From: Longimicrobiales bacterium | GTDB taxonomy: Bacteria; Gemmatimonadota; Gemmatimonadetes; Longimicrobiales; Gaopeijiaceae | Length of the DNA stretch: 64,000 bases | Direction of reading: 5' to 3' | Assembly (NCBI GenBank): GCA_965198065.1 | Contig: CBDAON010000004.1 | Span: 2,080,001-2,144,000, forward strand | Shown: one piece after another, positions 6,145 through 20,160 of the stretch | How the letters are laid out: each line of letters starts with the position of its first letter | Position numbering within the stretch: position 1 is the stretch's first letter | The notes under the pieces: generated by a model | The model's input: only the letters and a program-made list of their open reading frames with translations | Told to the model about the DNA's origin: nothing | Databases searched by the model: none | Position numbers and translations under genes: made by a program

Positions 6145-7599
6145 GTGAGTTCAGTCGCCTACAGCGTGGTGATGACGTCCGAAGTCGCCGCCGTGTTGAG
6201 AGGACATCTTCTGCAACACATCAGGAATGGGCAGCGGCAGGAGGACCTCTGTTTCGCCTTGTGGAAGCCGAGCACCGGCAAGACGCGAACGACCGCGGTG
6301 TTGACGGAGGTCGTTCTTCCGATCGCGAACGAAAGACAACTGCATGGCGGCGCGAGTTTTTTGCCTAACTATCTGGACCGGGTGGCGGAGGCTGCGATGT
6401 CGAGGAAAGCCGGCATCGCGTTGCTACACAGCCACTTCACGCCGGGATGGCAGGGAATGAGCGGGGAGGACGTGGACACGGAGCGAAGCACGGCGCCTTC
6501 GATACTTGGGGAGACGGGCCTGCCGCTGATCGGTCTGACCATGGGAACCGATGGGGCACTGAGCGCGCGTTTCTGGACACGGGTCGGGCGACGGGAGTAC
6601 GAACGGCGGTGGTGTGGGAGCGTTCGCATGGTCGGGGACGACTTTGACGTGACGTTCATGGAAAAGCTGGCACCTAAGCCGAGGTTCAAGGAAATGCTGA
6701 AGAGGACCTACTCGGCTTGGGGCGAGGAGAAGCAGCACACGCTCGCCCGGCTGCATTGCGGAGTGGTCGGGGTCGGAAGCGTGGGCGCGATCGTAGCGGA
6801 GAGCCTGGCCCGGATGGGTGTTGAGACCATCAGCCTGATCGACTTCGACACGGTGGAAGAACACAACCTGGATCGGCTTCTCCACGCGAGCGTGGATGAC
6901 ATCGGGTGGTGCAAGGTGGACGTGGCGGGCGAGCACCTGCGCAAGCACGCGACTGCCGACGATGTAGACGTGAGGCTGAACAGGAAGTCGGTGACAAGGG
7001 AGAGCGGCCTAAGGGCGGCGCTGGATTGCGACGTGCTGTTCAGTTGCGTGGATCGGCCCTGGCCGAGACAGGTGCTGAACATGGTGGCGTTCGCGCACCA
7101 CATCCCGGTCGTAGACGGAGGCGTGCACGTCCGCGTCAAGCCGGACGGGTCGATGCGATGGGCCGAGTGGGGCGCACACGTCGCGGTACCGGGCAGGGCG
7201 TGTCTGGAATGCCTCGGCCAGTTCGATCCGGCGAACGTCACGCTAGAGCGGCAAGGTCTGCTTGACGATCCGACGTACATCGAGCGGCTTCCCGGAGACC
7301 ATGTGCTGCGACGGAACGAGAACGTGTTCGGGTTCGCGCTGTCTGCGAGCGGAATGATGATCTGTCAGTTTCTGAGCATGGTCGTGCGACCTGTCGGGAT
7401 TGGTAATCCGGGGACCCAGACCTATCATTTCGCAACCGGGATGATGGACAGCGATGTAAGTTCCGCGTGTACTGCAGAGTGCCTGTACTACGAGCACATG
7501 GGCATGGGGGATCGCTTTCCATTCCCAGTGGTGGAGGCCGACGAAACGAAAGTTGAGCCGAGCGTTGGGGGGGGCGTGGTGGGCGAAATGGCGTCGTAG
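6145..7599 (+). CDS. JAB/JAMM peptidase-like domain fused to ThiF/E1-like adenylyltransferase
   Basis: GGAGGT RBS; N-terminal QED...HSH-x8-S-x2-D; C-terminal GVGSVG, DFDTVEEHNLDR, SCVD, CLEC and a distal C-x3-C. Confidence 0.85.
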   Translation: MSSVAYSVVMTSEVAAVLRGHLLQHIRNGQRQEDLCFALWKPSTGKTRTTAVLTEVVLPIANERQLHGGASFLPNYLDRVAEAAMSRKAGIALLHSHFTPGWQGMSGEDVDTERSTAPSILGETGLPLIGLTMGTDGALSARFWTRVGRREYERRWCGSVRMVGDDFDVTFMEKLAPKPRFKEMLKRTYSAWGEEKQHTLARLHCGVVGVGSVGAIVAESLARMGVETISLIDFDTVEEHNLDRLLHASVDDIGWCKVDVAGEHLRKHATADDVDVRLNRKSVTRESGLRAALDCDVLFSCVDRPWPRQVLNMVAFAHHIPVVDGGVHVRVKPDGSMRWAEWGAHVAVPGRACLECLGQFDPANVTLERQGLLDDPTYIERLPGDHVLRRNENVFGFALSASGMMICQFLSMVVRPVGIGNPGTQTYHFATGMMDSDVSSACTAECLYYEHMGMGDRFPFPVVEADETKVEPSVGGGVVGEMAS

Positions 7600-8254: not shown

Positions 8255-9364
8255 TGACCTGCCCCCAAAAGCGGTACCACCTAGAGTGTTAGTCCAAGCA
8301 CCTCCTTTTGGCTGGGGGGTGGTCCAAGAAGCAGAGGTAGGTTGAGCAGCTTTGGGTCTGGCCGGATCGCTTCGGGGGCCGGGGGTCGATAACCCAGAGA
8401 GCTGTGCGGTCGATGCGTGTTGTATTCGCGCCGCCACTGCTCGATCAGCACCTTCGCCTCCTCCAGCGAATAGAAGATTTCGCGCTTCAGCAGCTCGTTT
8501 CAGAGCGTGCCGTTAAAGCTCTCATTGTAGCCGTTCTCCCACGGGCTGCCCGGCTCGATGAACAGCGTCTTCACGCCTAGCTCACCGAGCCACTGCCGGC
8601 CGTCCATCATGCGTCCGGTCCGCCACGAAGTCATACGCCCATACATGGTGTCGGTACAGGGGCCGCAGTCGGATACAAGAACCGTCGGTCAGCCACAGCC
8701 TTCCTCGTTTCGGCTGCTTACTTGGCACCTTGAGCCCCTCCTGTCTCCAGATCCGCTCCACCCGCTTGTGGTTCACGGCCCAGCCCTCCGTCCTCAGCAT
8801 CCCCGTCACCATCCGGTACCCGCAGCGCCCGAACCTGCGAGCCACCTTCACCACGTCCTCTCTCAGCGCCTCCTCATCTTCGCTTCGCTTCGGTATCCGA
8901 CGCTGCGTCGAGCGTGCCTGGCCCAACACCCGGCACGCCTTGCGCTCACTCACCCCAAGCCGCTGGCGTACTTGCACCACGCAGCGTCTGCGCCACTCGG
9001 GGCTCAGTAGTTTCCCTCGGAGGCTTCCTTCAAGATCAGCTTGTCCAGCGTCAGCTCTGCCACCGCCCGCTTCAGCTGTTGGTTCTCCTTCCCTCGAGCT
9101 CCTTGAGACGCTTCGCCTGGCTCAGCTTCATTCCCCCGTACTCCCGCCGCCATCGGTAGTACGTTTGCTCGCTCACCCCCAGGTCTCGCCACACCTCTTT
9201 GGTCGTATTGCCGTTCGCCAGGGCCACCTCCGCCTTGCGTAGCCGGTTGATGATCTGTGCCGGACTCAGCCTCTTTGGTGCGGCCATTGTGCCCTCCCCT
9301 TTCGTGTCTTGACCCCGTCCAGATTCTAAAACTGGACTCGGTCTCGTTTTAGGGGGGTAGATCA
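8255..9364 (-). mobile_element. IS3-family element type 2, copy 2 (internal deletion)
   Basis: Near-identical to 2956-4242, same orientation; lacks 176 bp of orfB (equivalent to 3300-3475); same orfA frameshift. Confidence 0.92.
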
Positions 9365-9376
9365 GTAGCACCACGC

Positions 9377-9416
9377 GGGGCCATAGCTCAGTTGGGAGAG
9401 CGCCTGCTTTGCAAGC
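9377..9416 (+). repeat. tRNA-Ala(TGC) 5' half, att core copy 1
   Basis: GGGGCCATAGCTCAGTTGGGAGAGCGCCTGCTTTGCAAGC, identical to 18473-18512. Confidence 0.95.
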
Positions 9417-9521
9417 CCCTTTCTGGCGTTGGTGGGCGTCGGTCAGCGCTGGAATCGTTGAATCGAGCGTTGGTGAGCGCTGGCCAGCGTCGGTGGGCGT
9501 TGGCGCAGTTTTTGGCACAGT
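9417..9521 (+). repeat. conserved att arm following the tRNA half, copy 1
   Basis: Highly similar to 13658-13762; internal GCGTYGGT repeats and tandem TGGCGCAGT/TGGCACAGT. Confidence 0.85.
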
Positions 9522-9865
9522 CTTCTCAGCGCGAGTCCGCCAGGAATCATCGGACGAACTGACGCTGAGCGTTCGGGGTGCATGGCCGATTGCTCCACTC
9601 CTCTGAGAGCACCAGAGGAGCCCTGAGAGTTGCTGCGGCTCGGCGCCGAGCCGTCTCCCGCGTGTTTCCCTCGCCGCTGAAATCCCACAACCCAGGCGCC
9701 TTCTCGGAGCGCCTACCCATTGAGTGTCCGTAGGGGTTGGGTGCGCCGCTTGGTCAAGAATGAAGTGGTCGGATGGGGAGACCCGCCAACTCCTGAAGCA
9801 CCGAGCGGATGCGCGAACTGAATCAGAATGGCGGAGACCCCTGGCACCTGTGGCGATTCGGAGCA

Positions 9866-9883
9866 GTAATGATTATCTGTTAC
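9866..9883 (+). promoter_or_regulatory. possible Fur/Zur-family operator
   Basis: GTAATGATTATCTGTTAC, an AT-rich imperfect palindrome sharing TAATGATWATC with the Fur box, ~70 bp upstream of a metal-uptake operon. Confidence 0.4.
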
Positions 9884-9951
9884 CATCCCGCTGGAGCTGC
9901 CGTGGGCGTCGGACGGTCTCAAGTGAGGAGCGAAGGGAGGATCATCCGGCC

Positions 9952-11208
9952 ATGCACCGAAGGCTGCTCTCGCACGTGTGTCTGGCGGCGGTCTGCGCCG
10001 CCTCCGCCGGGCGTGCCCCATCGGTTCAGGCGCAGTCTGCCTTCCGGACGGAGACGACGGTGGAGACCGTACCGGCGCCCCGGCAAGCGCCGCAGCAGCA
10101 GGGCTTCATGAACGTCGGGTTCGTCGGGATGGTGGATTTCGGGTGGTCCACGGAGCCGGACGTGGCCTCGCTCCAGCTTGGCGCGCACGACCCCAAGGTC
10201 CGGGGCTTCACCATTCCCAACGCCGAGCTGACGCTGAATGGGGCGGTGGACCCCTTCTTTCAGGGATTCTCGGCCTTCGTGTACCAGGTGGACGAGGAAG
10301 GGGAGACCGGCGTCGAGCTCGAGGAGATGTACTTCCTGACGATGTCATTACCGTGGAACCTCCAGCTCAAGGGCGGCCAGTTTTTTGCCGAATTCGGCCG
10401 GCAGAACCCGCAGCACCCCCACTCGTGGGCGTTCGTGGACCAGCCCCTGGTGCTCACTCGTCTGCTTGGCCCGGACGGGCTTCGAAGTCAGGGAGCGAGG
10501 CTCTCCTGGCTCCTGCCCACAGCCTGGTACGTCGACACGATGCTGTCGGTTCTGAACAGCGCCGGGGAAGCCGCGTTCAGCTTTCGCTCCGATGAGTCGT
10601 CCGAGATCCACGGGGGCGTGGTCGCGGGGCGCGACGTGCAGGGGGTAGGAGAACTCCTCCTCCTCCCTCGGATCGCGACGTCCGTCGACCTGACGGATAC
10701 TCAGACCGTGCTGGCGGGCGCCTCCGGCGCATTCGGTCCGAACAACTCGGGTCTGGGAGCCCGGACACGGGTCTTCGGCGTGGACGTCTTCTGGAGGTGG
10801 CGCTCCGCGTTCGCTTTCCAGGGGTTTCCCTTCGTGTCGTTCCAGGCCGAGGCGCTCGGCCGCCAGTACGAGGCCGTGGAGCGCGAATCGCCGGAGGATC
10901 CCGATGTGGCGTTGCCTTCGGAGACCCTGAGAGATTGGGGCACGTACGCGGAGATCCTCTGGGGGATCCGGCCGCGTTGGGTCGCGGGCGTGCGGGGAGA
11001 CCTGGTGAGCGGTGAGGACGCCGCGTTCGAGTCCGATCTCCGCAAGGATCGGTACCGGCTTTCGCCGAGCGTCACCTGGTATCCTAGCGAGTTCTCGAAG
11101 GTTCGCCTGCAGTACAACCTGGATGACCGGGAGGGGCTTGGTACGGATCATTCCGTGTGGATGCAGGCGGAGTTCATTCTGGGGGCCCACGCGGCCCATC
11201 AGTTCTAG
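9952..11208 (+). CDS. outer-membrane beta-barrel protein of Zn/Mn-uptake operon
   Basis: GGGAGG RBS, signal peptide, GAVDPFF, FGRQNPQHPHSW, C-terminal GAHAAHQF; directly upstream of a metal-binding SBP. Confidence 0.75.
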   Translation: MHRRLLSHVCLAAVCAASAGRAPSVQAQSAFRTETTVETVPAPRQAPQQQGFMNVGFVGMVDFGWSTEPDVASLQLGAHDPKVRGFTIPNAELTLNGAVDPFFQGFSAFVYQVDEEGETGVELEEMYFLTMSLPWNLQLKGGQFFAEFGRQNPQHPHSWAFVDQPLVLTRLLGPDGLRSQGARLSWLLPTAWYVDTMLSVLNSAGEAAFSFRSDESSEIHGGVVAGRDVQGVGELLLLPRIATSVDLTDTQTVLAGASGAFGPNNSGLGARTRVFGVDVFWRWRSAFAFQGFPFVSFQAEALGRQYEAVERESPEDPDVALPSETLRDWGTYAEILWGIRPRWVAGVRGDLVSGEDAAFESDLRKDRYRLSPSVTWYPSEFSKVRLQYNLDDREGLGTDHSVWMQAEFILGAHAAHQF

Positions 11209-11224
11209 CCCGAAGGAGATGGCC

Positions 11225-12148
11225 ATGAACGGAGTCGCTCGGATCCTCGGCGTCGTGGGCTGGCTAACGGCGTACGGGATGGGTGCGCCCCTCGCGGGCC
11301 AGCTGAGGGTCATCGCGACCACGCCGGATCTCGCGGCGCTCGCCCGGGAGATCGGTGGGAATCGAGTCGACGTGCAGGCTCTGGCGAAGCCCACCGAGGA
11401 TCCACACTTCGTGGACGCGAGGCCCAGCTACATCGTGACCCTCAACCGGGCCGACGTCCTCGTCGAGGGGGGCGCGGACCTCGAGATCGGCTGGCTGCCC
11501 CCGCTTCTCCAGAGTGCTAGAAACGCCAAGCTAACGGCCGGAGCCCCCGGGCGCATTCCCGCTTCCTCTGTGGTCACCATGCTCGAGGTGCCCGCCACGC
11601 TGGACCGCTCGCGCGGGGACGTCCATGCCCTCGGAAACCCCCACTTCATGCTCGACCCGGTGAACGTGCGCCTGATCGGAGCCCTGATAGCAGACCGTTT
11701 AGCGCAGGTGGACCCTCCCTCGGCATCGGTGTACCGGAACAACCTTCAGGACTTCAACGCACGGCTCGACACGAAGCTGGCGGAATGGCAACGCCGGCTC
11801 GCTCCACTTGCGGGCGCGGAGATCGTCACGTACCACCGGGATTTCGTCTATCTGGCAGATCGGTTCAACCTGAACGTCGTGGCCACTCTGGAGGAGAGGC
11901 CCGGGATCGCGCCCTCGCCCGCGCATCTTGCCGACGTGATCGCCACGATGCGGTCCGGAGGCGTACGCGCGATCCTCGTGCAGCCGTTCCAGAACCGTAG
12001 GACCGCCGAGACCGTAGCCCGGCAAACGGGTGCGGTGGTCCTGGACATGCCGCAGCAGCCGGGGGTATTGCGCGGAACGGACGGCTACTTCGATCTGATG
12101 GATTACCTCGTCGGCGCGCTCGCGGGCGGGCTGAGTGAGGGTGGGTGA
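11225..12148 (+). CDS. metal ABC transporter substrate-binding protein (ZnuA/TroA family)
   Basis: AAGGAG RBS; EDPHFV, GNPHFMLDP, TYHRDF, PGIAPSPAHL motifs. Confidence 0.9.
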   Translation: MNGVARILGVVGWLTAYGMGAPLAGQLRVIATTPDLAALAREIGGNRVDVQALAKPTEDPHFVDARPSYIVTLNRADVLVEGGADLEIGWLPPLLQSARNAKLTAGAPGRIPASSVVTMLEVPATLDRSRGDVHALGNPHFMLDPVNVRLIGALIADRLAQVDPPSASVYRNNLQDFNARLDTKLAEWQRRLAPLAGAEIVTYHRDFVYLADRFNLNVVATLEERPGIAPSPAHLADVIATMRSGGVRAILVQPFQNRRTAETVARQTGAVVLDMPQQPGVLRGTDGYFDLMDYLVGALAGGLSEGG

Positions 12149-12978
12149 GCTTGGACCTCGAGATTGCATGGGCCGTTATGAAATGGCCGCTTGTGGCCCT
12201 CCTCGTGCTTCCCCCCCTGCTTGTCTATCTCGGCCTGCACGTGGTTCTACGCGAGGTGATCTTCGTGGACCTCGCGCTGGCGCAGGTCGCGGCCCTGGGC
12301 ACAAGCCTCGCGCTGCTCATCGGATACGACTTCCGCGACAGCCCCACGTTTTGGATCTCCCTGGGTGTTGCGTTCCTGGGGGCCGCCCTCTTCAGCTGGA
12401 CCCGGGGCCGGGAGAAGGGACCGGTTCCCCAGGAGGCAATCATCGGGATCACGTTCGTCGTCGCGGCCGCGGGCGTGATTCTCCTTCTCAGCAGGGTGGC
12501 GGGTGGGCGGGAAGAGCTCGAGCACCTGCTCACGGGCGACATCCTGAACGTGACGACCGGGGAGGTGGGGCAGCGGGCCCTCCTGTTTGCAGTACTGGGA
12601 GGATTCTACACGGCCTTCCATGAGCGCTTCGCCCTCATCTCCACCAATCCGGAGGAAGCCTTTGCCCGAGGAACGCGTGTTCGCCTGTGGGACTTCCTCT
12701 TCTACGCGGCCTTCTCCCTCGTGGTCGTGAGCTTCGTTCGGGTGGCTGGGGTCCTGGTCACCTTCGCCTATCTCATCGTACCAGCGGTCTGCGCGGTCAC
12801 TCTCGTCGGCGGATGGCTCAGGCGGCTCGCCGTGGGCTCGGGCATCGCGGTCGCGGCGAGCGTCCTGGGCCTGGGCGCGTCCTACTGGTGGGACCTGCCC
12901 ACCGGTGCTGCGGTCGTATGCACTTCGGGGGTGGTGCTCGTCCTGGTCATGACTTCTTCGACCCTACGGGGGTCCTGA
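12145..12978 (+). CDS. metal ABC transporter permease (ZnuB family)
   Basis: Multi-TM; LGLHVVLREVIFVDLALAQ, GVLVTFAYLIVPA, DLPTGAAVV; GTGA overlap. Confidence 0.88.
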   Translation: MSLDLEIAWAVMKWPLVALLVLPPLLVYLGLHVVLREVIFVDLALAQVAALGTSLALLIGYDFRDSPTFWISLGVAFLGAALFSWTRGREKGPVPQEAIIGITFVVAAAGVILLLSRVAGGREELEHLLTGDILNVTTGEVGQRALLFAVLGGFYTAFHERFALISTNPEEAFARGTRVRLWDFLFYAAFSLVVVSFVRVAGVLVTFAYLIVPAVCAVTLVGGWLRRLAVGSGIAVAASVLGLGASYWWDLPTGAAVVCTSGVVLVLVMTSSTLRGS

Positions 12979-13096
12979 ACGAAGGACGCGCTCTAACTCG
13001 CCGCTCCGACGGCCTCCCGAACCTCTCCGGCCGGCTCCGTCGCCGGATAGCGAAGCGGTGTCAGGGTCTGATTGAGACCATCCTTGGAGATGTCCT

Positions 13097-13497
13097 ATGG
13101 TAGGGAAAGACCCAGTGCGTGGTAGTTTTGATCGGTGCGAGGCCGCGGGGAACTTCGCAGAGCAGTTCTATGCTGTCTTTCTCAACTCATCACCCGAGAT
13201 CGGACCGCTGTTTGCGATGACGGATTTCGAGAACCAGCGAAAGCTGCTCCGAGCGACTGTGTACATCATGGTCACGCGGAGCGTAGACGACGTTCAAGCG
13301 CGAGAGACGCTGGAGAGGATCGGCTATTCGCATGGACGCACGCAACTTGAGCATTAGACCGGAGTTGTACGAAGTCTGGCTAGACAGCGTGTGCCAGACC
13401 GTGAAGCAAATGGATCCGGACTGGACAATCGGAAGTCGAACGTGAGTGGCGTGATCGGTTACGACCGGGTATTGATTTGATTACGTCCTTCTACTGA
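13097..13497 (+). pseudogene. single-domain globin with two frameshifts
   Basis: SFDRC...FYAVFLNSSPEIGPLFAMTDFENQRKLL...SHGR; continues in shifted frames as SIRPELYEVWLDSV...DPDWT and EVEREWRDRLRPGIDLITSFY*. Confidence 0.8.
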
Positions 13498-13618
13498 CAA
13501 AGCATCTTCAGGCAGTTATCGCGTCAGCAATCGCTTGTTAGCACGCGCCTTGCTCGCGTGGGTGAGCACGTGCCCGAACCGCGCAAAGGACGTAACATAC
13601 TAAGCAGTAAGGACTTAC

Positions 13619-13657
13619 GGGGCCATAGCTAGTTGGGAGAGCGCCTGCTTTGCAAGC
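13619..13657 (+). repeat. tRNA-Ala(TGC) 5' half, att core copy 2 (1-bp deletion)
   Basis: GGGGCCATAGCT-AGTTGGGAGAGCGCCTGCTTTGCAAGC. Confidence 0.93.
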
Positions 13658-13762
13658 CCCTTTCTGGCGTTGGTGGGCGTCCGTAGGCGCTGGAATCGTT
13701 GAATCGAGCGTTGGTCAGAGTGTGCCAGCGTCGGTGGGCGCTGGCGCAGTTTTTGGCACAGT
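13658..13762 (+). repeat. conserved att arm following the tRNA half, copy 2
   Basis: Highly similar to 9417-9521. Confidence 0.85.
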
Positions 13763-13865
13763 TTTCAGTACCTTGACCTACAGGGGTGATGCAAGCGGAT
13801 CGGAGAGCAACTCCGATGGCACTGAAGCCCTGTTCGTGACGGAGAAGACGGGGATCGGGTAAAGC

Positions 13866-15040
13866 GTGAGCGCCAAGAGTCGCCTCCGTAAGATCCTGCG
13901 GTCGATCGCGGTAGCGGGCGCAGTCTTTGGCGTCGTTATGGGCCTCTACGCCAGCACATTCGTCCTGTCGTACGGCGCGTTGTTCGCCGATGCCGATCCT
14001 CTCCTAGTGACGGATGTTGGTCGGGTTACCCCGGCACTCGTTGAAGCGATATACGAGGTTCAAGACGTCGATGAGATTGGGGCTGCCCTCGCCGACGCGA
14101 GAGAGCGGGGCCTCAAAGTGTCAATCGCGGGGAGTCGACACAGCCAGGGGGGGCAAACGTACGCGGAGGGCGGGGTCGTTCTGTCCATGCGTGGGTTCAA
14201 TCGCATCCTCGCGGTTGACCCGGTGGGCCAGACCATAACTGTAGAGAGTGGAGCTACGTGGGACGAAGTCCAGCGAGCGCAAGGCATCGCCATGATGATT
14301 GCTCGCCCATCGATCGATCCAGATCCCGACGAATTCTTGAGGGAGATGGTGGTCGTGACGTGGCGTCGCGACGCCCCCGGCATCGATGGGGAGTTTGAAT
14401 TGACCGAAGAAGAGCGAGTTCTGCGCGACCGATTCTTCTTCGGCCTTTCGCGGAGATTCGATTGGGCGAAGTCTCTGCGATGGAACCTGCAGAAGCGGTG
14501 GAGCCCACCCTCTCGGAGATTCAGCTGATCTCACGGAACAATGCGATGCGCCCGCCGCTCGCTCCCGTGGCATTCCTCGACTACGAGTCGCCGTCGGACA
14601 CCGACATCCTGCAAGAGTACTTCGTTCCCGTGGACAGCTTCGTCGCGTTCATGGATCGGTCTCGAAGCATCTTCGAGGAGGGAGACGTCAATCTGTTGAG
14701 CGCGACCGTGAGATTCGTGACGCCCGACTCTACCGCGATGCTGGCTTATGCTCCCCGCGAAGAAATGTTTGCCGTTGCCCACCTGACGAATGTTGGACTG
14801 AGCCCCTCGGATCAAGCGAGGACCGAACGAGTCACGCAGGATCTCGTCACGAGTCCCCTCGATTTTTTGGGCACGTATTACCTGACGTATCAACTTTACC
14901 CTACAGTGACGCAGCTTCGGCGAGCATACCCGACGGCGGATAGTGCCTTCTCGCGAAAGAGATTCTATGATCCGACGGAGCTATTCAGTTCTATGAACGA
15001 TACGCGGGTTCGTAGGGATCGGCCTGAGACCCGCGAATAA
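13866..15040 (+). pseudogene. FAD-binding oxidoreductase (PCMH type), internally deleted and frameshifted
   Basis: SIAGSRHSQGGQ, ITVESGATWDEVQ then an abrupt jump at ~14280; frameshift at ~14497; TDILQEYFVP and GTYYLTYQLY in the second frame. Confidence 0.8.
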
Positions 15041-15076
15041 GCGTGTGGTTACCTCCTCCCCCGTAAGAGAAAAGAG

Positions 15077-16744
15077 ATGGCCTACGACACCGACGACGTC
15101 GCTCTTCACGCGGCCTACTACTGGGAGAAGACCACGCCGGACCGGATCTGGCTGACGCAGCCTGCCCCCGGCGGACGTATCGAGGAGTACACCTGGAGGT
15201 CGGCGATGGACGAGGCGCGGCGCATGGCGGCGCATCTCCTTTCCGTCGATCTCTCTCCCGGGAGCCACGTGGCGCTCTTCTCCAAGAACTCCGCGTGGTG
15301 GGTCATGGCCGACCTCGCGATCTGGATGGCCGGCCACGTCTCCGTCCCGGTCTACCCAACGCTGACGCCGCAAACGATTCGCCAGATCCTCGAGCACTCG
15401 GAGGCCCGGCTCGTCTTCATCGGCAAGCTCGACGATTTCGCCTCGATGGAGCCCGGCATCCCGGCCGACCTGCCGCGCATCCTGACGCCCTGCGCGCCGG
15501 AGACGCACGGCGATCGCTGGGAGGACGTCGTCGCGCGGACCGAGCCGCTGCTGGAGGACGTCAGGCGAGGCGAGGACGAGCTCGGAACGATCATCTACAC
15601 CTCGGGAACCACGGGCATCCCGAAGGGCGTGATGCACTCCTTCGGGAGCATGGGCGTCGGGGCGCGCGGCGCCATCGCAAGCGTGAGCGTGAAGTCCGAC
15701 GACCGGATGCTCTCCTACCTACCGCTCGCACACGCGTTCGAGCGCTGGCACGTCGAGACGGTCTCGCTCTTGGCAGGATTCCAGATCTTCTTCGCCGACA
15801 GCCCGGACAGCTTCGTGCAAGACCTCCGGCGCGCTCGCCCCACCCTCTTTATCTCGGTGCCGCGGCTCTGGCAGAAGTTCCAGGCGGGCGTCTTCAAGAA
15901 GACGAAGCCGGACCGGCTCGCCCGCCTGCTCAAGGTCCCGATTGTCGGACGCATCGTCCGCAGGAAGGTGCTCGAGGGTCTCGGTCTGGACGCCGTACGC
16001 GTTGCCGGATCCGGATCGGCGCCGATTCCCGGTGAGCTGATCGAGTGGTACCGCGACCTGGGCCTAGAGCTGATCGAGGGCTACGGCATGACCGAGAACT
16101 TCTGCTACTCTCACCAAAGCCGTCAGGACGAGGTGCGACCGGGATACGTCGGGCGCGCGTACGAGGACGTCGAGTGCAGGATCAGCGACGAAGGCGAGGT
16201 CCTGGTCAAGAGCCCGGCCAGCATGCTGGGCTACTACAAAATGCCGGAGGAGAGCGTGGCGTCGTTCACGGAAGACGGGTTCCTCAAGACCGGCGACCGC
16301 GGCGAGATCGACGAGCGAGGACGGCTTCGGATCACCGGGCGCGTCAAGGAGCTCTTCAAGACGAGCAAGGGCAAGTACGTCGCGCCAGCACCCATCGAGA
16401 GCAAGCTGCTCGTCCACGAGGCGATCGAGATGGTCTGCGTCGCCGGTAACGGCCAGCCCCAACCACATGCCATCGTCATGCTCTCGGACGAGGCTCGGAG
16501 CCGCGCCGAAGGATCTGGCCGGGAGGAGGTCGAGCGCGCGCTGACGGAGCACCTGCAGAGAGTCAATCCGGAGCTCGATCACCACGAGAAGCTCAGCTTT
16601 CTCTCGATCGTGCCGGACGTGTGGGCCGTGGAGAACGGCTTCCTGACGCCGACGCTGAAGCTGAAGCGTGTGGTCATCGACGACACCTACGGTCCGTCGA
16701 TCGCGAGCTGGTACGCGCGGAAGACCAGAATTCTCTGGATCTGA
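15077..16744 (+). CDS. long-chain fatty acid-CoA ligase (AMP-binding)
   Basis: IIYTSGTTGIPKG, EGYGMTE, LKTGDRG, ITGRVKELFKTSKGKYVAP, LTPTLKLKR. Confidence 0.92.
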   Translation: MAYDTDDVALHAAYYWEKTTPDRIWLTQPAPGGRIEEYTWRSAMDEARRMAAHLLSVDLSPGSHVALFSKNSAWWVMADLAIWMAGHVSVPVYPTLTPQTIRQILEHSEARLVFIGKLDDFASMEPGIPADLPRILTPCAPETHGDRWEDVVARTEPLLEDVRRGEDELGTIIYTSGTTGIPKGVMHSFGSMGVGARGAIASVSVKSDDRMLSYLPLAHAFERWHVETVSLLAGFQIFFADSPDSFVQDLRRARPTLFISVPRLWQKFQAGVFKKTKPDRLARLLKVPIVGRIVRRKVLEGLGLDAVRVAGSGSAPIPGELIEWYRDLGLELIEGYGMTENFCYSHQSRQDEVRPGYVGRAYEDVECRISDEGEVLVKSPASMLGYYKMPEESVASFTEDGFLKTGDRGEIDERGRLRITGRVKELFKTSKGKYVAPAPIESKLLVHEAIEMVCVAGNGQPQPHAIVMLSDEARSRAEGSGREEVERALTEHLQRVNPELDHHEKLSFLSIVPDVWAVENGFLTPTLKLKRVVIDDTYGPSIASWYARKTRILWI

Positions 16745-16835
16745 CGCGAGCGTCACGGAAGCTTTCTTACGATTCGCGCAACGCCGACTGACTCCCGAGC
16801 CCACCGTTCCACTCCTGCACCTGGGGCTAGCTCGC

Positions 16836-18341
16836 ATGAACCCACAGGCTGAAGTCGGTCCTGCACCAACTGCGTACCAGAGGCTCCGGCGGGGGCTGGC
16901 TTTTCTCATGTGGCTTTTCTTTCGTCGAGTGGAGGTGGTGGGTCTGGAGGACCTCCCCAACGACCGGGGCGGCATCTTGGTCGCTTGGCACCCCAACGCG
17001 CTCATCGACCCAGCGCTGATTCTCAGCGCCTTCCCCGGGCAGGTCGTGTTCGGGGCTCGGCACGGCCTCTTTCAGTTACCTTTGATCGGCCACCTCATGC
17101 GAGCCATCGGCACCGTCCCGATTTACCGTCGTCAGGATACCTCCGAAGGGGACACGGAGGTCGCCAGGAGGAAGAACTCTGACAGTCTCGCGGCGCTGGC
17201 CGACCGAATCGCCGCCGGATCGTTCTCTGCGCTCTTCCCCGAGGGCATCTCTCACGACGCCCCCTTTCTGCAGGATATCAAGACCGGGGCCGCCCGTTTG
17301 TATTACCAGGCCCGCATGCGCACCGAGGGCCATCGACCACCGCCGGCACTGATACCCGTCGGACTCCACTACGCGAAAAAGCACCTGTTCCGGTCCAAGG
17401 CTCTGGTGGTGTTCCATCCGCCGCTCACGCTCCTGGCGGAGCTCGATGTCACCCCGCCGGACGAAGAGGATCCCGAGAAACTTCGGGAGTTGGCGCGCAA
17501 GCTGACTCGGGAAGTCGAGCGCTCTCTCAAGGCCGCAGTCCTCGAGACCGAAAGCTGGGAGCTTCACAGCCTCCACCACCGCACCGCGAAGCTCATCCGC
17601 GCGGAGCGTGCCCACCGCGCCGAGGCGAACCCTGGTGCGATCACGATGGATGAGGAGGTGTTGGGATTCGCGCGCGTGTGGACGGCCCGTCAGCATCTTA
17701 TCGGCTCGCATCCCGAGCGGGATGAGCAGTTGACGAAGCGAGTCAAGAGATACGACAGGATGCTGAGAGCACTCGCCATCGAGGACCACGAGATCGACTA
17801 CCCCCCGCCCGTGATCGGCGGCTGGCTCTTGGCTGGTCTCATGCTTAAGGCGGTCTCCGTGGTCGTACTGCTGCCGCCCTTCCTGCTGTTCGGGGCGCTC
17901 GTGAACCTCCCACCCGCGTTGCTGGTCATCGCGGGGGCGCGGCGGGCGGCAAAGGAGCCCAAGGACATCGCGTCGCTGAAGCTGCTCGGCGGCGTGGTTG
18001 CGTATCCGCTGGCGTGGGCCATCTGGGCGTTGCTCGCGGGATGGGGGATCGTCCAGGCGCAGACGATCGCCCCCTGGGTGCCAGCCCAACCGATTCTCGG
18101 CGGCGCCGTCATGCTGGCGCTCTGTGTGGCCAGCGCGGTCGTGATGCTCCTGTACTGGGAGTTGGCCGTCGGAACCTTGCGCGCCTTGCGCGTGCGCCTG
18201 ACCAGGGGGCGGCACGGTCGGGCGTTGACTCGCCTGCGAGCGGAGCGGTCACGCCTCTGTGACGAGATCTTGGCTTTCGCGGAAGGAGTCGAGTTGCCGG
18301 GGCAGGTTCTGCCTAGCGGACGGCTGTCCCGCAACCGCTGA
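16836..18341 (+). CDS. glycerol-3-phosphate/lysophospholipid acyltransferase (PlsC-like) with C-terminal TM region
   Basis: HPNALID (HX4D), LFPEGISH, IPVGLHY motifs. Confidence 0.85.
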   Translation: MNPQAEVGPAPTAYQRLRRGLAFLMWLFFRRVEVVGLEDLPNDRGGILVAWHPNALIDPALILSAFPGQVVFGARHGLFQLPLIGHLMRAIGTVPIYRRQDTSEGDTEVARRKNSDSLAALADRIAAGSFSALFPEGISHDAPFLQDIKTGAARLYYQARMRTEGHRPPPALIPVGLHYAKKHLFRSKALVVFHPPLTLLAELDVTPPDEEDPEKLRELARKLTREVERSLKAAVLETESWELHSLHHRTAKLIRAERAHRAEANPGAITMDEEVLGFARVWTARQHLIGSHPERDEQLTKRVKRYDRMLRALAIEDHEIDYPPPVIGGWLLAGLMLKAVSVVVLLPPFLLFGALVNLPPALLVIAGARRAAKEPKDIASLKLLGGVVAYPLAWAIWALLAGWGIVQAQTIAPWVPAQPILGGAVMLALCVASAVVMLLYWELAVGTLRALRVRLTRGRHGRALTRLRAERSRLCDEILAFAEGVELPGQVLPSGRLSRNR

Positions 18342-18472
18342 GCCAAACGCGTGCGGCGCTCGGTTCGAACCCTCCGATCGACCCACGGCCCGCGCCCGTG
18401 TGGTTTTTGGCACAGTTGGAGTATGGGCCCGATGACGCAAAGGACGGAAAGCACCAACTAGAAGGGACTTAG

Positions 18473-18545
18473 GGGGCCATAGCTCAGTTGGGAGAGCGCC
18501 TGCTTTGCAAGCAGGAGGTCACGGGTTCGAATCCCGTTGGCTCCA
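18473..18545 (+). tRNA. tRNA-Ala(TGC), intact, CCA not encoded
   Basis: 73-nt cloverleaf; anticodon loop TTTGCAA; GGTTCGAATCC T-arm; G3:U70 pair in acceptor stem. Confidence 0.97.
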
Positions 18546-18572
18546 TTGAAGTTACGGGATATGCTTAGTCGG

Positions 18573-18595
18573 ATTCCCGCTATTTATTCCCGCTA
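18573..18595 (+). repeat. direct repeat ATTCCCGCTA x2 (possible integrase arm sites)
   Basis: 18573-18582 and 18586-18595, between the tRNA and the integrase stop codon. Confidence 0.5.
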
Positions 18596-18602
18596 ATTGG
18601 GC

Positions 18603-19670
18603 TCAGGAGCGGGCTCTCCGCCGGCGCTCGAGGGCCTTCCGGAGTTGCCCCTCGTCGGCCCGCTGGTAGCACTGCAGCACCGTCTGGGCCGTCTTCCAGC
18701 CGCCGAGTTCGCAGAGCACCTTGAGCGGCTGGTTCATCAGGTCCGAAGCGAACTTCCGCCTCAGGGAGTGCCAGCCGCGGCCACGCTTCGGCGCGAGCCC
18801 GGCGAGCTCTTGCGCCTTCTCCCACCAGTCGCGCGCCAGCGAACGGCTCACGCACTTCGACGGGTCCTTCGGCGCTGGCAGTAGGGGAGCGTCTCCGATC
18901 CCGGGGTTCTCCCTCCGTGCCTCTTCCAGGGCACCAAGCGCTTCGGTGCTCACCGGGGTCCGGTGCTCGTACCCGGTCTTCTCATGCTCCCCACGCCACC
19001 GGATCACGCCGGCTTCCAGGTCGATGTCCGACCATCCAAGCTGCCGGATCGCACCGATGCGGTGTCCCGTCTCGTGCGCCAGCACCAGAGCCACGCGAAA
19101 GCGCCAGCCCATCGCTATCGACACTCCCAGCAGGGCCTCGTATTCCGCCTCAGTGAGCAGCACCCGGACCGGGTTTTTTTCCCTGGGTGGCTTCAGGCCT
19201 TTCAGAGGGTTTGCATCGAGGAGGAGCCTGCCCTCCTCGTCTCTCGAGTTCACGGCCCAGTTGAAGACCGCGAGCAGGAACCTCACGTCGTATTCGATGG
19301 TTCGATCGGACACCGGCTTGCCGCTCGGTCCGGCATTGCCCGCACGCCGCGCCCGGATGAACCGATCCCAGTCACGCTGGGACAGTGTGGCTGGTTTCCG
19401 GTCCCTGCCGAAGAACTTGAGGAACATCCTCATCGCGGCCCGATCGTACCTTCGGGACCGCTCGCTCTTGGTGGGAGTCACCTCTTCACCGTAGATGTCA
19501 AAAAGCGTCTTCAGGGTGAGTGGCTTGGGCTCGGCATTCGCCTTGTCCTGGAGTTCCGACGGTGTGCTGCCGGCAGCGACTTCGTCCGCCTGCCTCTTGG
19601 CCCGGGCCCAGTCTTGATGCCCGAGCGATCTACTCAACCTGCGCCCGTCCTCCCGCCACTCGATCTGGAT
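18603..19670 (-). CDS. tyrosine recombinase/integrase, apparently 5'-truncated
   Basis: ETGHRIGA (R), HEKTG (K), WHSLRRK (HxxR), LGGWK (W), LQCYQ (Y); frame extends to IQIEWREDGRR at ~19670 without a good start codon. Confidence 0.85.
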   Translation of the reverse strand: MQIEWREDGRRLSRSLGHQDWARAKRQADEVAAGSTPSELQDKANAEPKPLTLKTLFDIYGEEVTPTKSERSRRYDRAAMRMFLKFFGRDRKPATLSQRDWDRFIRARRAGNAGPSGKPVSDRTIEYDVRFLLAVFNWAVNSRDEEGRLLLDANPLKGLKPPREKNPVRVLLTEAEYEALLGVSIAMGWRFRVALVLAHETGHRIGAIRQLGWSDIDLEAGVIRWRGEHEKTGYEHRTPVSTEALGALEEARRENPGIGDAPLLPAPKDPSKCVSRSLARDWWEKAQELAGLAPKRGRGWHSLRRKFASDLMNQPLKVLCELGGWKTAQTVLQCYQRADEGQLRKALERRRRARS

Positions 19671-19726
19671 GGGAAATCCGTTTCGCCCCGGTGGACATAA
19701 TGGGGGGGCAGAGCACCGTCTCTAAA

Positions 19727-19759
19727 GATGTAACCCGTTTGTAATAAACGGTTTACATC
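19727..19759. repeat. AT-rich palindrome, 14-bp arms with 5-bp spacer
   Basis: GATGTAACCCGTTT-GTAAT-AAACGGTTTACATC, one mismatch. Confidence 0.75.
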
Positions 19760-19799
19760 ACTTATCGCAGCAGTCCGAACGGAACCGAGCCAGTGGGCG

Positions 19800-20160
19800 A
19801 CGACCTCGCCGACCTGACGTCGCTGGATCTCGGCGGCAATCGACTCTCGGGACCAATTCCCCCCGAACTCGGCAACATCACCAGCCTGGATTTCCTGAAA
19901 TCTCAGCGGTAACCATCTGACCAGCCTGCCGCCCCGCGTGTTCGAACGGCTCTCCAGGCTGGGAACGTTGTCTGGGGGGAAACGAACTGGACGTGTTGCC
20001 CGAAGGTGCGTTTCTCGGCCTTTCGAGCCTGAGCTTTCTGTACTTGGGAAACAATCCGGGATCGCCTTTCGAGTTGACCCTACAGATCCAGCGCACCGAC
20101 GACGAAGATCTCCGGGCCCCGGGGCCCGCCAACATCACGGTAAGCGTGCGGGAGGGAGCG
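19800..20160 (+). pseudogene. leucine-rich-repeat protein remnant
   Basis: LTSLDLGGNRLSGPIPPELGNITSL / LSGNHLTSLPPRVFERLSRL / NELDVLPEGAFLGLSSLSFLYLGNNPG across frameshifts. Confidence 0.8.

Follow-up and report, generated by a model that had tools for sequence, protein, structure and literature searches.

The window, the whole stretch of 64,000 nucleotides (nt) analysed here (C4:2080001-2144000), belongs to a 3.05-Mb, 87.6%-complete genome (G000). It holds an array of two cargo blocks, which we call units A and B, stacked on the 5' side of a tRNA-Ala(TGC) gene and delimited by partial copies of this gene. Genomes of relatives are designated by G, locus records by L and other sequencing runs by X, each with a number.

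Half-genes, arms and cargo at tRNA-Ala(TGC)

The intact tRNA-Ala(TGC) (18473..18545, on the plus strand, as are all parts of the array described below) is the sole Ala-TGC gene called in the genome. A preliminary description of the locus had reported three direct copies of its first 40 nt. The copy at the left junction of unit A (9377..9416) indeed matches nt 1-40 of the gene at 100% and another lies within the intact gene, but the one at the A/B junction (13619..13657) is one base short. Identity to the tRNA halves stops at the anticodon loop or within 2 nt of it, both in the window and in relatives, and we infer that this loop (18504-18510) is the crossover region. A 15-nt tRNA-half match on contig C3 was at chance level (E 0.19) and was discarded.

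The first two copies are each followed, as had been described, by an arm of ~105 nt, the right arm (P') of the respective unit. The arm of unit A (9417..9521) terminates in CAGTTTTTGGCACAGT and scores on a profile of the arms at 49 non-self junctions. The arm of unit B (13658..13762) has the same letter at 98/106 aligned positions and is identical at 103/105 positions to the copy at C4:1773514. The latter is one of three further arm copies with other cargo on this contig (C4:1759225, 1761008 and 1773514), which the preliminary description had missed. Contig C4 contains the arm 12-mer TTTTTGGCACAG at six sites, where an order-3 Markov model predicts 0.01; they correspond to five arm ends and one position 5' of the intact tRNA (18404).

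On the other side of the units, a terminator-like hairpin, with its T run fused into the left arm (P) of unit B, spans 18384..18472; this arm holds the 12-mer at 18404, and GGCACAGT begins 64 nt 5' of the tRNA. The left arm of unit A (13582..13618) is truncated to its proximal part, and its arm motif is gone. The motif said to precede both the second and the third tRNA copy was recovered in part: the two regions share ~37-45 proximal nt, but TTTTTGGCACAG is present before 18473 and not before 13619. Since the 12-mer is missing and only this proximal stretch is kept, the 13619 junction is incomplete, and not the complete attP-like junction that had been proposed. In the element family as a whole, the TTTTTGGCACAGT arm motif flanks the anticodon loop on both sides, and from genus to genus the spacer diverges but the motif and its spacing do not. 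Its position, its repetition and its association with integrases point to an integrase arm-binding site.

Unit A carries a predicted outer-membrane receptor/porin-like gene, a ZnuA-like binding protein and an ABC-3 permease (9952..12978; Pfam, NCBIfam). This cargo reads as metal uptake, with no ATPase called; an Atlas result was treated as a lead only. A short fragment of an open reading frame (ORF) follows (13115..13357), which looks globin-like to us, has 0 family matches and lies in another context in run X15. Unit B begins with a broken FAD-linked oxidoreductase gene (13866..15040; PF01565), in two frames and with its middle gone, the pieces of which align with a 486-aa paralogue at residues 36-118 and 343-472; it continues with a FadD-like acyl-CoA ligase and an acyltransferase (15077..18341; Pfam, NCBIfam). 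The cargo of both units is accessory. The receptor gene of unit A was found in 5/150 family genomes, with no arm or tRNA piece within 1.5 kb there, and the acyltransferase of unit B in 0/150 at E<=1e-60. No recombinase was detected in either block with Pfam, NCBIfam, our own integrase hidden Markov model or tblastn with cognate integrases, in agreement with the preliminary description.

The blocks are real but mosaic, with broken genes. Run X12, from a study other than that of the best holder of the array, shows 2 differences over 9494-13427 and none over most of unit B, and a contig of X14 spans 14648 into the tRNA. Contigs of X14 and X15 depart from the window sequence after 13057, one of X15 does so after 14278, and X15 carries the acyltransferase (94% alike) between other flanks. 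With genes broken, and with other strains joining the same genes to other DNA, units A and B are not the clean cassettes they had been taken for. A gap in the X14 cover (13771-14647) and small shares in the seawater runs X1-X9 were not used as evidence. None of the contigs listed for other runs spans the 13619 junction, as would be the case if the array were a one-off duplication or a misassembly. Yet, the arm copies differ at 7-8 positions, contigs of X12 and X14 cover parts of the array and the same architecture recurs in many relatives, which leaves this explanation with almost no credibility.

To the left, the array is bordered by an insertion-sequence (IS) remnant (8255..9364, minus strand) with an HTH_21 domain, multi-copy in the genome and, to judge from this domain, of IS3 type. 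This remnant, also overlooked earlier, stops 12 nt short of 9377, and the DNA formerly left of the array is severed there. IS copies flank a second arm cluster as well. The arms might then be passive scars, in blocks built by IS activity and homologous recombination in a genome rich in IS copies, with nothing mobile as a unit; that both blocks are mosaic would agree with this, as would a genome with 34 tyrosine-recombinase matches and ~30 tRNA fragments (half-genes, on contig C4). However, the arm motif and its spacing have been kept across genera despite the diverging spacer, and the cargo is accessory and fills units end to end in relatives. We regard such an origin as improbable.

Other features of this region are a ThiF-domain gene between IS remnants (6145-7599), with a long unannotated N-terminal part and, as a guess of ours, possibly a defence function, and an 86-nt non-coding stretch (9601-9686) with 87% identity to C4:2458620 and no Rfam match. 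A Rfam scan of 9300-19800 returned nothing significant except tRNA, and a sigma-70 scan of 18250-18700 gave 0 promoters, hence no support for a promoter supplied by the element.

Integrases beside the tRNA gene and in relatives

Directly behind the intact tRNA lies the left end of a separate element family (18546..19669, minus strand), with ATTCCCGC-type arm repeats and a tyrosine integrase (18603-19637, minus strand; PF00589) that the preliminary description had passed over. It ends 58 nt past the tRNA and is without the N-terminal ~30 residues of its paralogues. As it adjoins the insertion site, it could be imagined to drive the array in the manner of an integron integrase. However, it is one of a multi-copy family in which the left end, with its own type of repeats, follows tRNA 3' ends (Ile, Pro); the protein is truncated and far from the cognate clade described below; the arrays of relatives are mostly without this family; and no integron-integrase model appeared among the NCBIfam matches. 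We consider such a role very improbable. A displaced Ala 3' half with ATTCCCGC-type repeats before it is present at C4:1219124. Judged from these repeats and from its paralogues, the 18603-19637 integrase is part of a separate tRNA 3'-half-replacing element, and not the cognate enzyme of the arms. With such an element behind it, the tRNA-Ala of the window would be a chimera, both halves of which were supplied by elements. Of note, the displaced half (C4:1219083-1219124) resembles the 3' half of the tRNA-Ala in a same-genus genome.

An integrase-encoding element with the same arms does exist in relatives. In G077, a 24-kb element extends from a half-plus-arm to an intact tRNA-Ala, with its integrase (P0001) in divergent orientation at the tRNA end; it further encodes two HTH_17 proteins, a D5-type primase-helicase and restriction-modification-like cargo, and 9/16 of its scanned ORFs were without a Pfam match. 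Integrases at least 60% identical to P0001 were found in 6/150 family genomes. In all five genomes with the tRNA in view (G077, G139, G024, G012 and G004), the integrase precedes Ala-TGC, Pro-TGG or Val-TAC on the 5' side, and the arm motif lies between the two. Six P0001-type proteins formed one clade, with a support of 100 in the Shimodaira-Hasegawa-like approximate likelihood ratio test (SH-aLRT), in a quick tree of 42 rows from which the split G004 gene was left out. In record L087, the integrase is accompanied by a terminase large subunit. Primase or terminase was seen in the parent elements, with no relaxase among their annotated ORFs. The P0001-type tyrosine integrase is the probable cognate enzyme of the arms.

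No integrase of this clade was found in the 87.6%-complete host genome, and the mobilisation in trans that had been put forward is reduced here to a possibility. The best match in the host shows 38-49% identity, is located behind tRNA-Arg(CCG) and belongs to another clade; a 28-residue scrap was the only other match. The tRNA-Arg(CCG) integrase at C4:2066802 was rejected as a helper, given its different clade and the other repeats beside the gene. Among viral contigs, a single-protein search, which reaches close relatives only, gave no P0001 relative.

The arm recurs with unrelated cargo both in the host genome and in relatives. An arm-spanning match was obtained in at least 11/150 family genomes, among the matches listed. 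A strict junction pattern was found in 5/156 genomes of the family, 0/144 genomes of two sister families, 40 metagenome loci and 0 viral contigs, the reversed control giving 0. All 8 named genomes matching the junction pattern have Gemmatimonadota names, and the host presumably belongs to this phylum as well. The junctions are mostly tRNA-Pro(TGG) halves, with Ala-TGC, Val-TAC and Arg-CCT also represented, and arrays reach 5 halves (L035). In the same-genus genome G001, the intact tRNA-Ala has no arms and its flanks are not syntenic with those of the host; a compact 18-tRNA cluster (C4:1710874-1713237) is also present in G001.

Related structures were noted along the way. At tRNA-Pro(TGG), C4:119538-119800 is a miniature of the same layout, with a GCACAGT left-arm remnant on its 5' side and a scrap of a 3'-type integrase on its 3' side. 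Family genomes contain a second tRNA-Ala 5'-half junction family with other arm repeats (TGCACAC type; records L021, L022, L032). More arrays on C4 are suggested by stacked 3' halves of Cys, Leu-TAA and Arg-CCG (2707626-2725431, 2803823-2813265 and 1880213-1891923). A protein of 449 aa, probably secreted and with no match in Pfam or NCBIfam, has at least 8 copies in the genome, 79-100% alike (C4:117974-119553, 1757547-1760868, 2708197-2709543 and 2779547-2786944), two of them behind arms, and homologues of it adjoin junctions in L030, L083 and L104.

Relics or cassettes

For the census of units, duplicates, self copies and records of unrelated tRNA clusters were removed, 38 locus records in all, two of which were brought back as a single joined contig. 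Some near-duplicate records are still included, one unit whose right half went undetected was excluded, and small units are favoured because flanks extend no farther than 10 kb. The delimited units were 0.14-9.2 kb in size. At L033:8579-8723, an empty 144-nt unit consists of a right arm fused to a left arm at their common motif, directly 5' of tRNA-Pro. A lone serine/threonine kinase gene often lies directly behind the arm and fills the whole unit (L035, L038, L043, L083).

The array of the window is rather likely, in our view, to be a stack of integrase-less leftovers of tRNA-integrating elements, accreted in the manner of cis-mobilizable elements (CIMEs). Its junctions conform to the att junctions of tRNA 5'-half-replacing elements, as had been recognized. 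Elements would integrate successively into the anticodon loop of tRNA-Ala, each insertion bringing a new 5' half and shifting the old half and the older elements upstream. In the parent elements, which are seen in relatives, a tyrosine integrase is divergent and just 5' of the restored tRNA, with GGCACAGT between them and again ~95 nt past the displaced half. Once an element had integrated, its integrase and replication genes may have been deleted by CIME-like decay, with ends and cargo remaining, and cargo may have been exchanged between ends via the conserved arm. The geometry of the junctions would make B newer than A, as already proposed. Because it retains its right arm and one left-arm motif, unit B could probably be excised or co-mobilised by a visiting autonomous element, whereas unit A, with its left-arm motif lost, is probably stranded. 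Signs of decay in the window are the distal unit without left motif, the broken genes and the departure of the X14 and X15 contigs after 13057. According to PMC7563491, accretion places the most decayed elements farthest from the target gene, and the window fits this rule.

Traces of integrase loss were seen in relatives. An integrase-less 7.7-kb unit of G010 shares 86 nt at 89.5% with the integrase-upstream DNA of G139, the similarity stopping at the ribosome-binding site of the integrase, and an integrase-less neighbour unit in G077 retains 154 nt of such DNA at 87%. These remnants make an origin by integrase deletion likely for the two units. The endpoints vary between units.

Several findings weigh against decay as the whole account. 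No integrase remnant was found within A or B, so that their descent by deletion is deduced from relatives only. When the two units of the window are included, 15/16 delimited units have no cognate integrase, and the same holds within 2 kb for 25/31 right ends with the arm motif (4 of the 6 integrase-bearing ends were retrieved on account of the integrase). The left motif stands at fixed spacing before 22/47 halves and 11/21 intact tRNAs, versus 92/6180 random windows, and in many integrase-less units a single intact gene or operon occupies the whole unit. Furthermore, a stretch of arm plus HupE cargo, which lies behind a Pro half in G010 and behind an Arg(CCT) anticodon-arm piece in G137, has 98% identity over 1225 nt, versus 72-84% for other DNA common to the two genomes, which indicates a recent interspecies move of one arm-plus-cargo stretch. 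These findings suggest that some integrase-less units are living cassettes and not relics.

The array itself could then result from living, integron-like gene capture, in which minimal units, consisting of cargo and att ends, are cut out, transferred and inserted anew in trans during visits of an autonomous element of the clade. In addition to the above, 10 of the 15 integrase-less units retain both arms (5/15 are without the left motif), and arrays with as many as five halves are known. A two-gene module, which we read as toxin-antitoxin-like although it has no Pfam match, is found next to arms in four records, in copies that are 70-83% alike and have differing neighbours, and several left-end subfamilies are common to units with different cargo. 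Yet, no circle, empty site or reliable joint was seen in the contigs of six sequencing runs, whereas the preliminary description had suggested looking for circular forms and empty sites. The G137 contig terminates inside the cargo, so that an integrase may have accompanied it; since, moreover, the first ~10 arm bases differ between G010 and G137, an exchange within the arm would also explain the 98% stretch. Between L101 and L091, the two-gene module was gained or lost without a left junction. The census is biased to small units, and unit A has no left motif. Finally, among the 11 arm-match family genomes of the matches listed, the cognate integrase is present only in G077, G012 being a second genome with both. 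We hold living gene capture to be an unlikely, though serious, explanation of this array. Two candidate empty sites came to nothing: an X14 joint from 9401 to 18472 has a short side of 23 letters and 20 foreign letters in between, and no tRNA adjoins the gene in G010 that is orthologous to the one next to the G137 junction.

Comparison with known systems

With integrons, the system has in common that recombinase-less gene units, toxin-antitoxin-like modules included, form a polarised array. In contrast to integrons, no IntI-type integrase beside an attI was found here; the adjoining integrase is truncated and comes from a tRNA-3' family, the junctions consist of a tRNA half and an arm-type site, and the helper would be a separate mobile element.

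Accretion products are a closer match. CIMEs and site-specific accretion, on the ICESt1/ICESt3 model, are defined in PMC7563491 and PMC5704250. Like CIMEs, A and B contain neither integrase nor transfer genes, and in both cases units without integrase, with att ends and 1-13 kb of cargo, are stacked at the target gene with the most decayed outermost; empty units of minimal size occur as well (L033). Of the ends, unit B has a right arm and one left-arm motif, and unit A is without the left motif. The units here differ in that the array grows at the 5' side of the tRNA, that the parents bear primase or terminase and that no active element adjoins the array in the window. In the Islander collection of tDNA islands, 159/3919 islands have a 5' fragment, and an integrase is required per island (PMC4383910). 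The likeness to these islands consists in a displaced 5' tRNA fragment that lies upstream in the same orientation and ends at the loop, with crossover in the anticodon loop; with no integrase inside, units like those of the window would be filtered out.

Tycheposons form tandem arrays with partial tRNAs (10.1101/2020.12.28.424599). By description, they and the Prochlorococcus tRNA islands combine an integrase with a primase/helicase and cargo or a packaging gene, carry nutrient-uptake cargo and have newer elements displacing older ones outward. Unlike A and B, tycheposons each have an integrase and a hallmark gene set of their own; an integrase with a replication module is present in the G077 parent. 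Pelagiphages use tyrosine integrases, and the host tRNA is completed by a phage-borne 5' piece (10.1101/410191); these are whole phages, integrase-less arrays not being described in the available part of that paper. tRNA fragments in general are treated in PMC9897764. As both 5'-fragment islands and integrase-less accreted elements have been published, the view of the array as a candidate for an undescribed gene-capture system is not supported. No publication on this Gemmatimonadota element family was found in titles and abstract starts, a search that did not extend to subscription papers or to supplements, and the latter may list such elements.

What is added here is the probable helper integrase and its multi-tRNA range. 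As a tentative extension, which we think has a limited chance of being right, one Gemmatimonadota integrase clade with shared arms would serve at least four tRNAs (Ala-TGC, Pro-TGG, Val-TAC, Arg-CCT), the target being set by the 7-nt anticodon loop, and integrase-less single-gene units would outnumber their helpers, be excised in trans and swap cargo and target via the arm. By using several tRNA loops with one and the same arm, an integrase clade of this kind could also become a tool for retargetable integration. With the probable enzyme, the motif and both intact and decayed ends known, it has become possible to test directly if tRNA arrays without integrase are relics or living cassettes. 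Such units are overlooked by island finders that require an integrase, though in this phylum accessory genes reside there, including those for metal uptake, kinases, toxin-antitoxin-like pairs and large enzymes.

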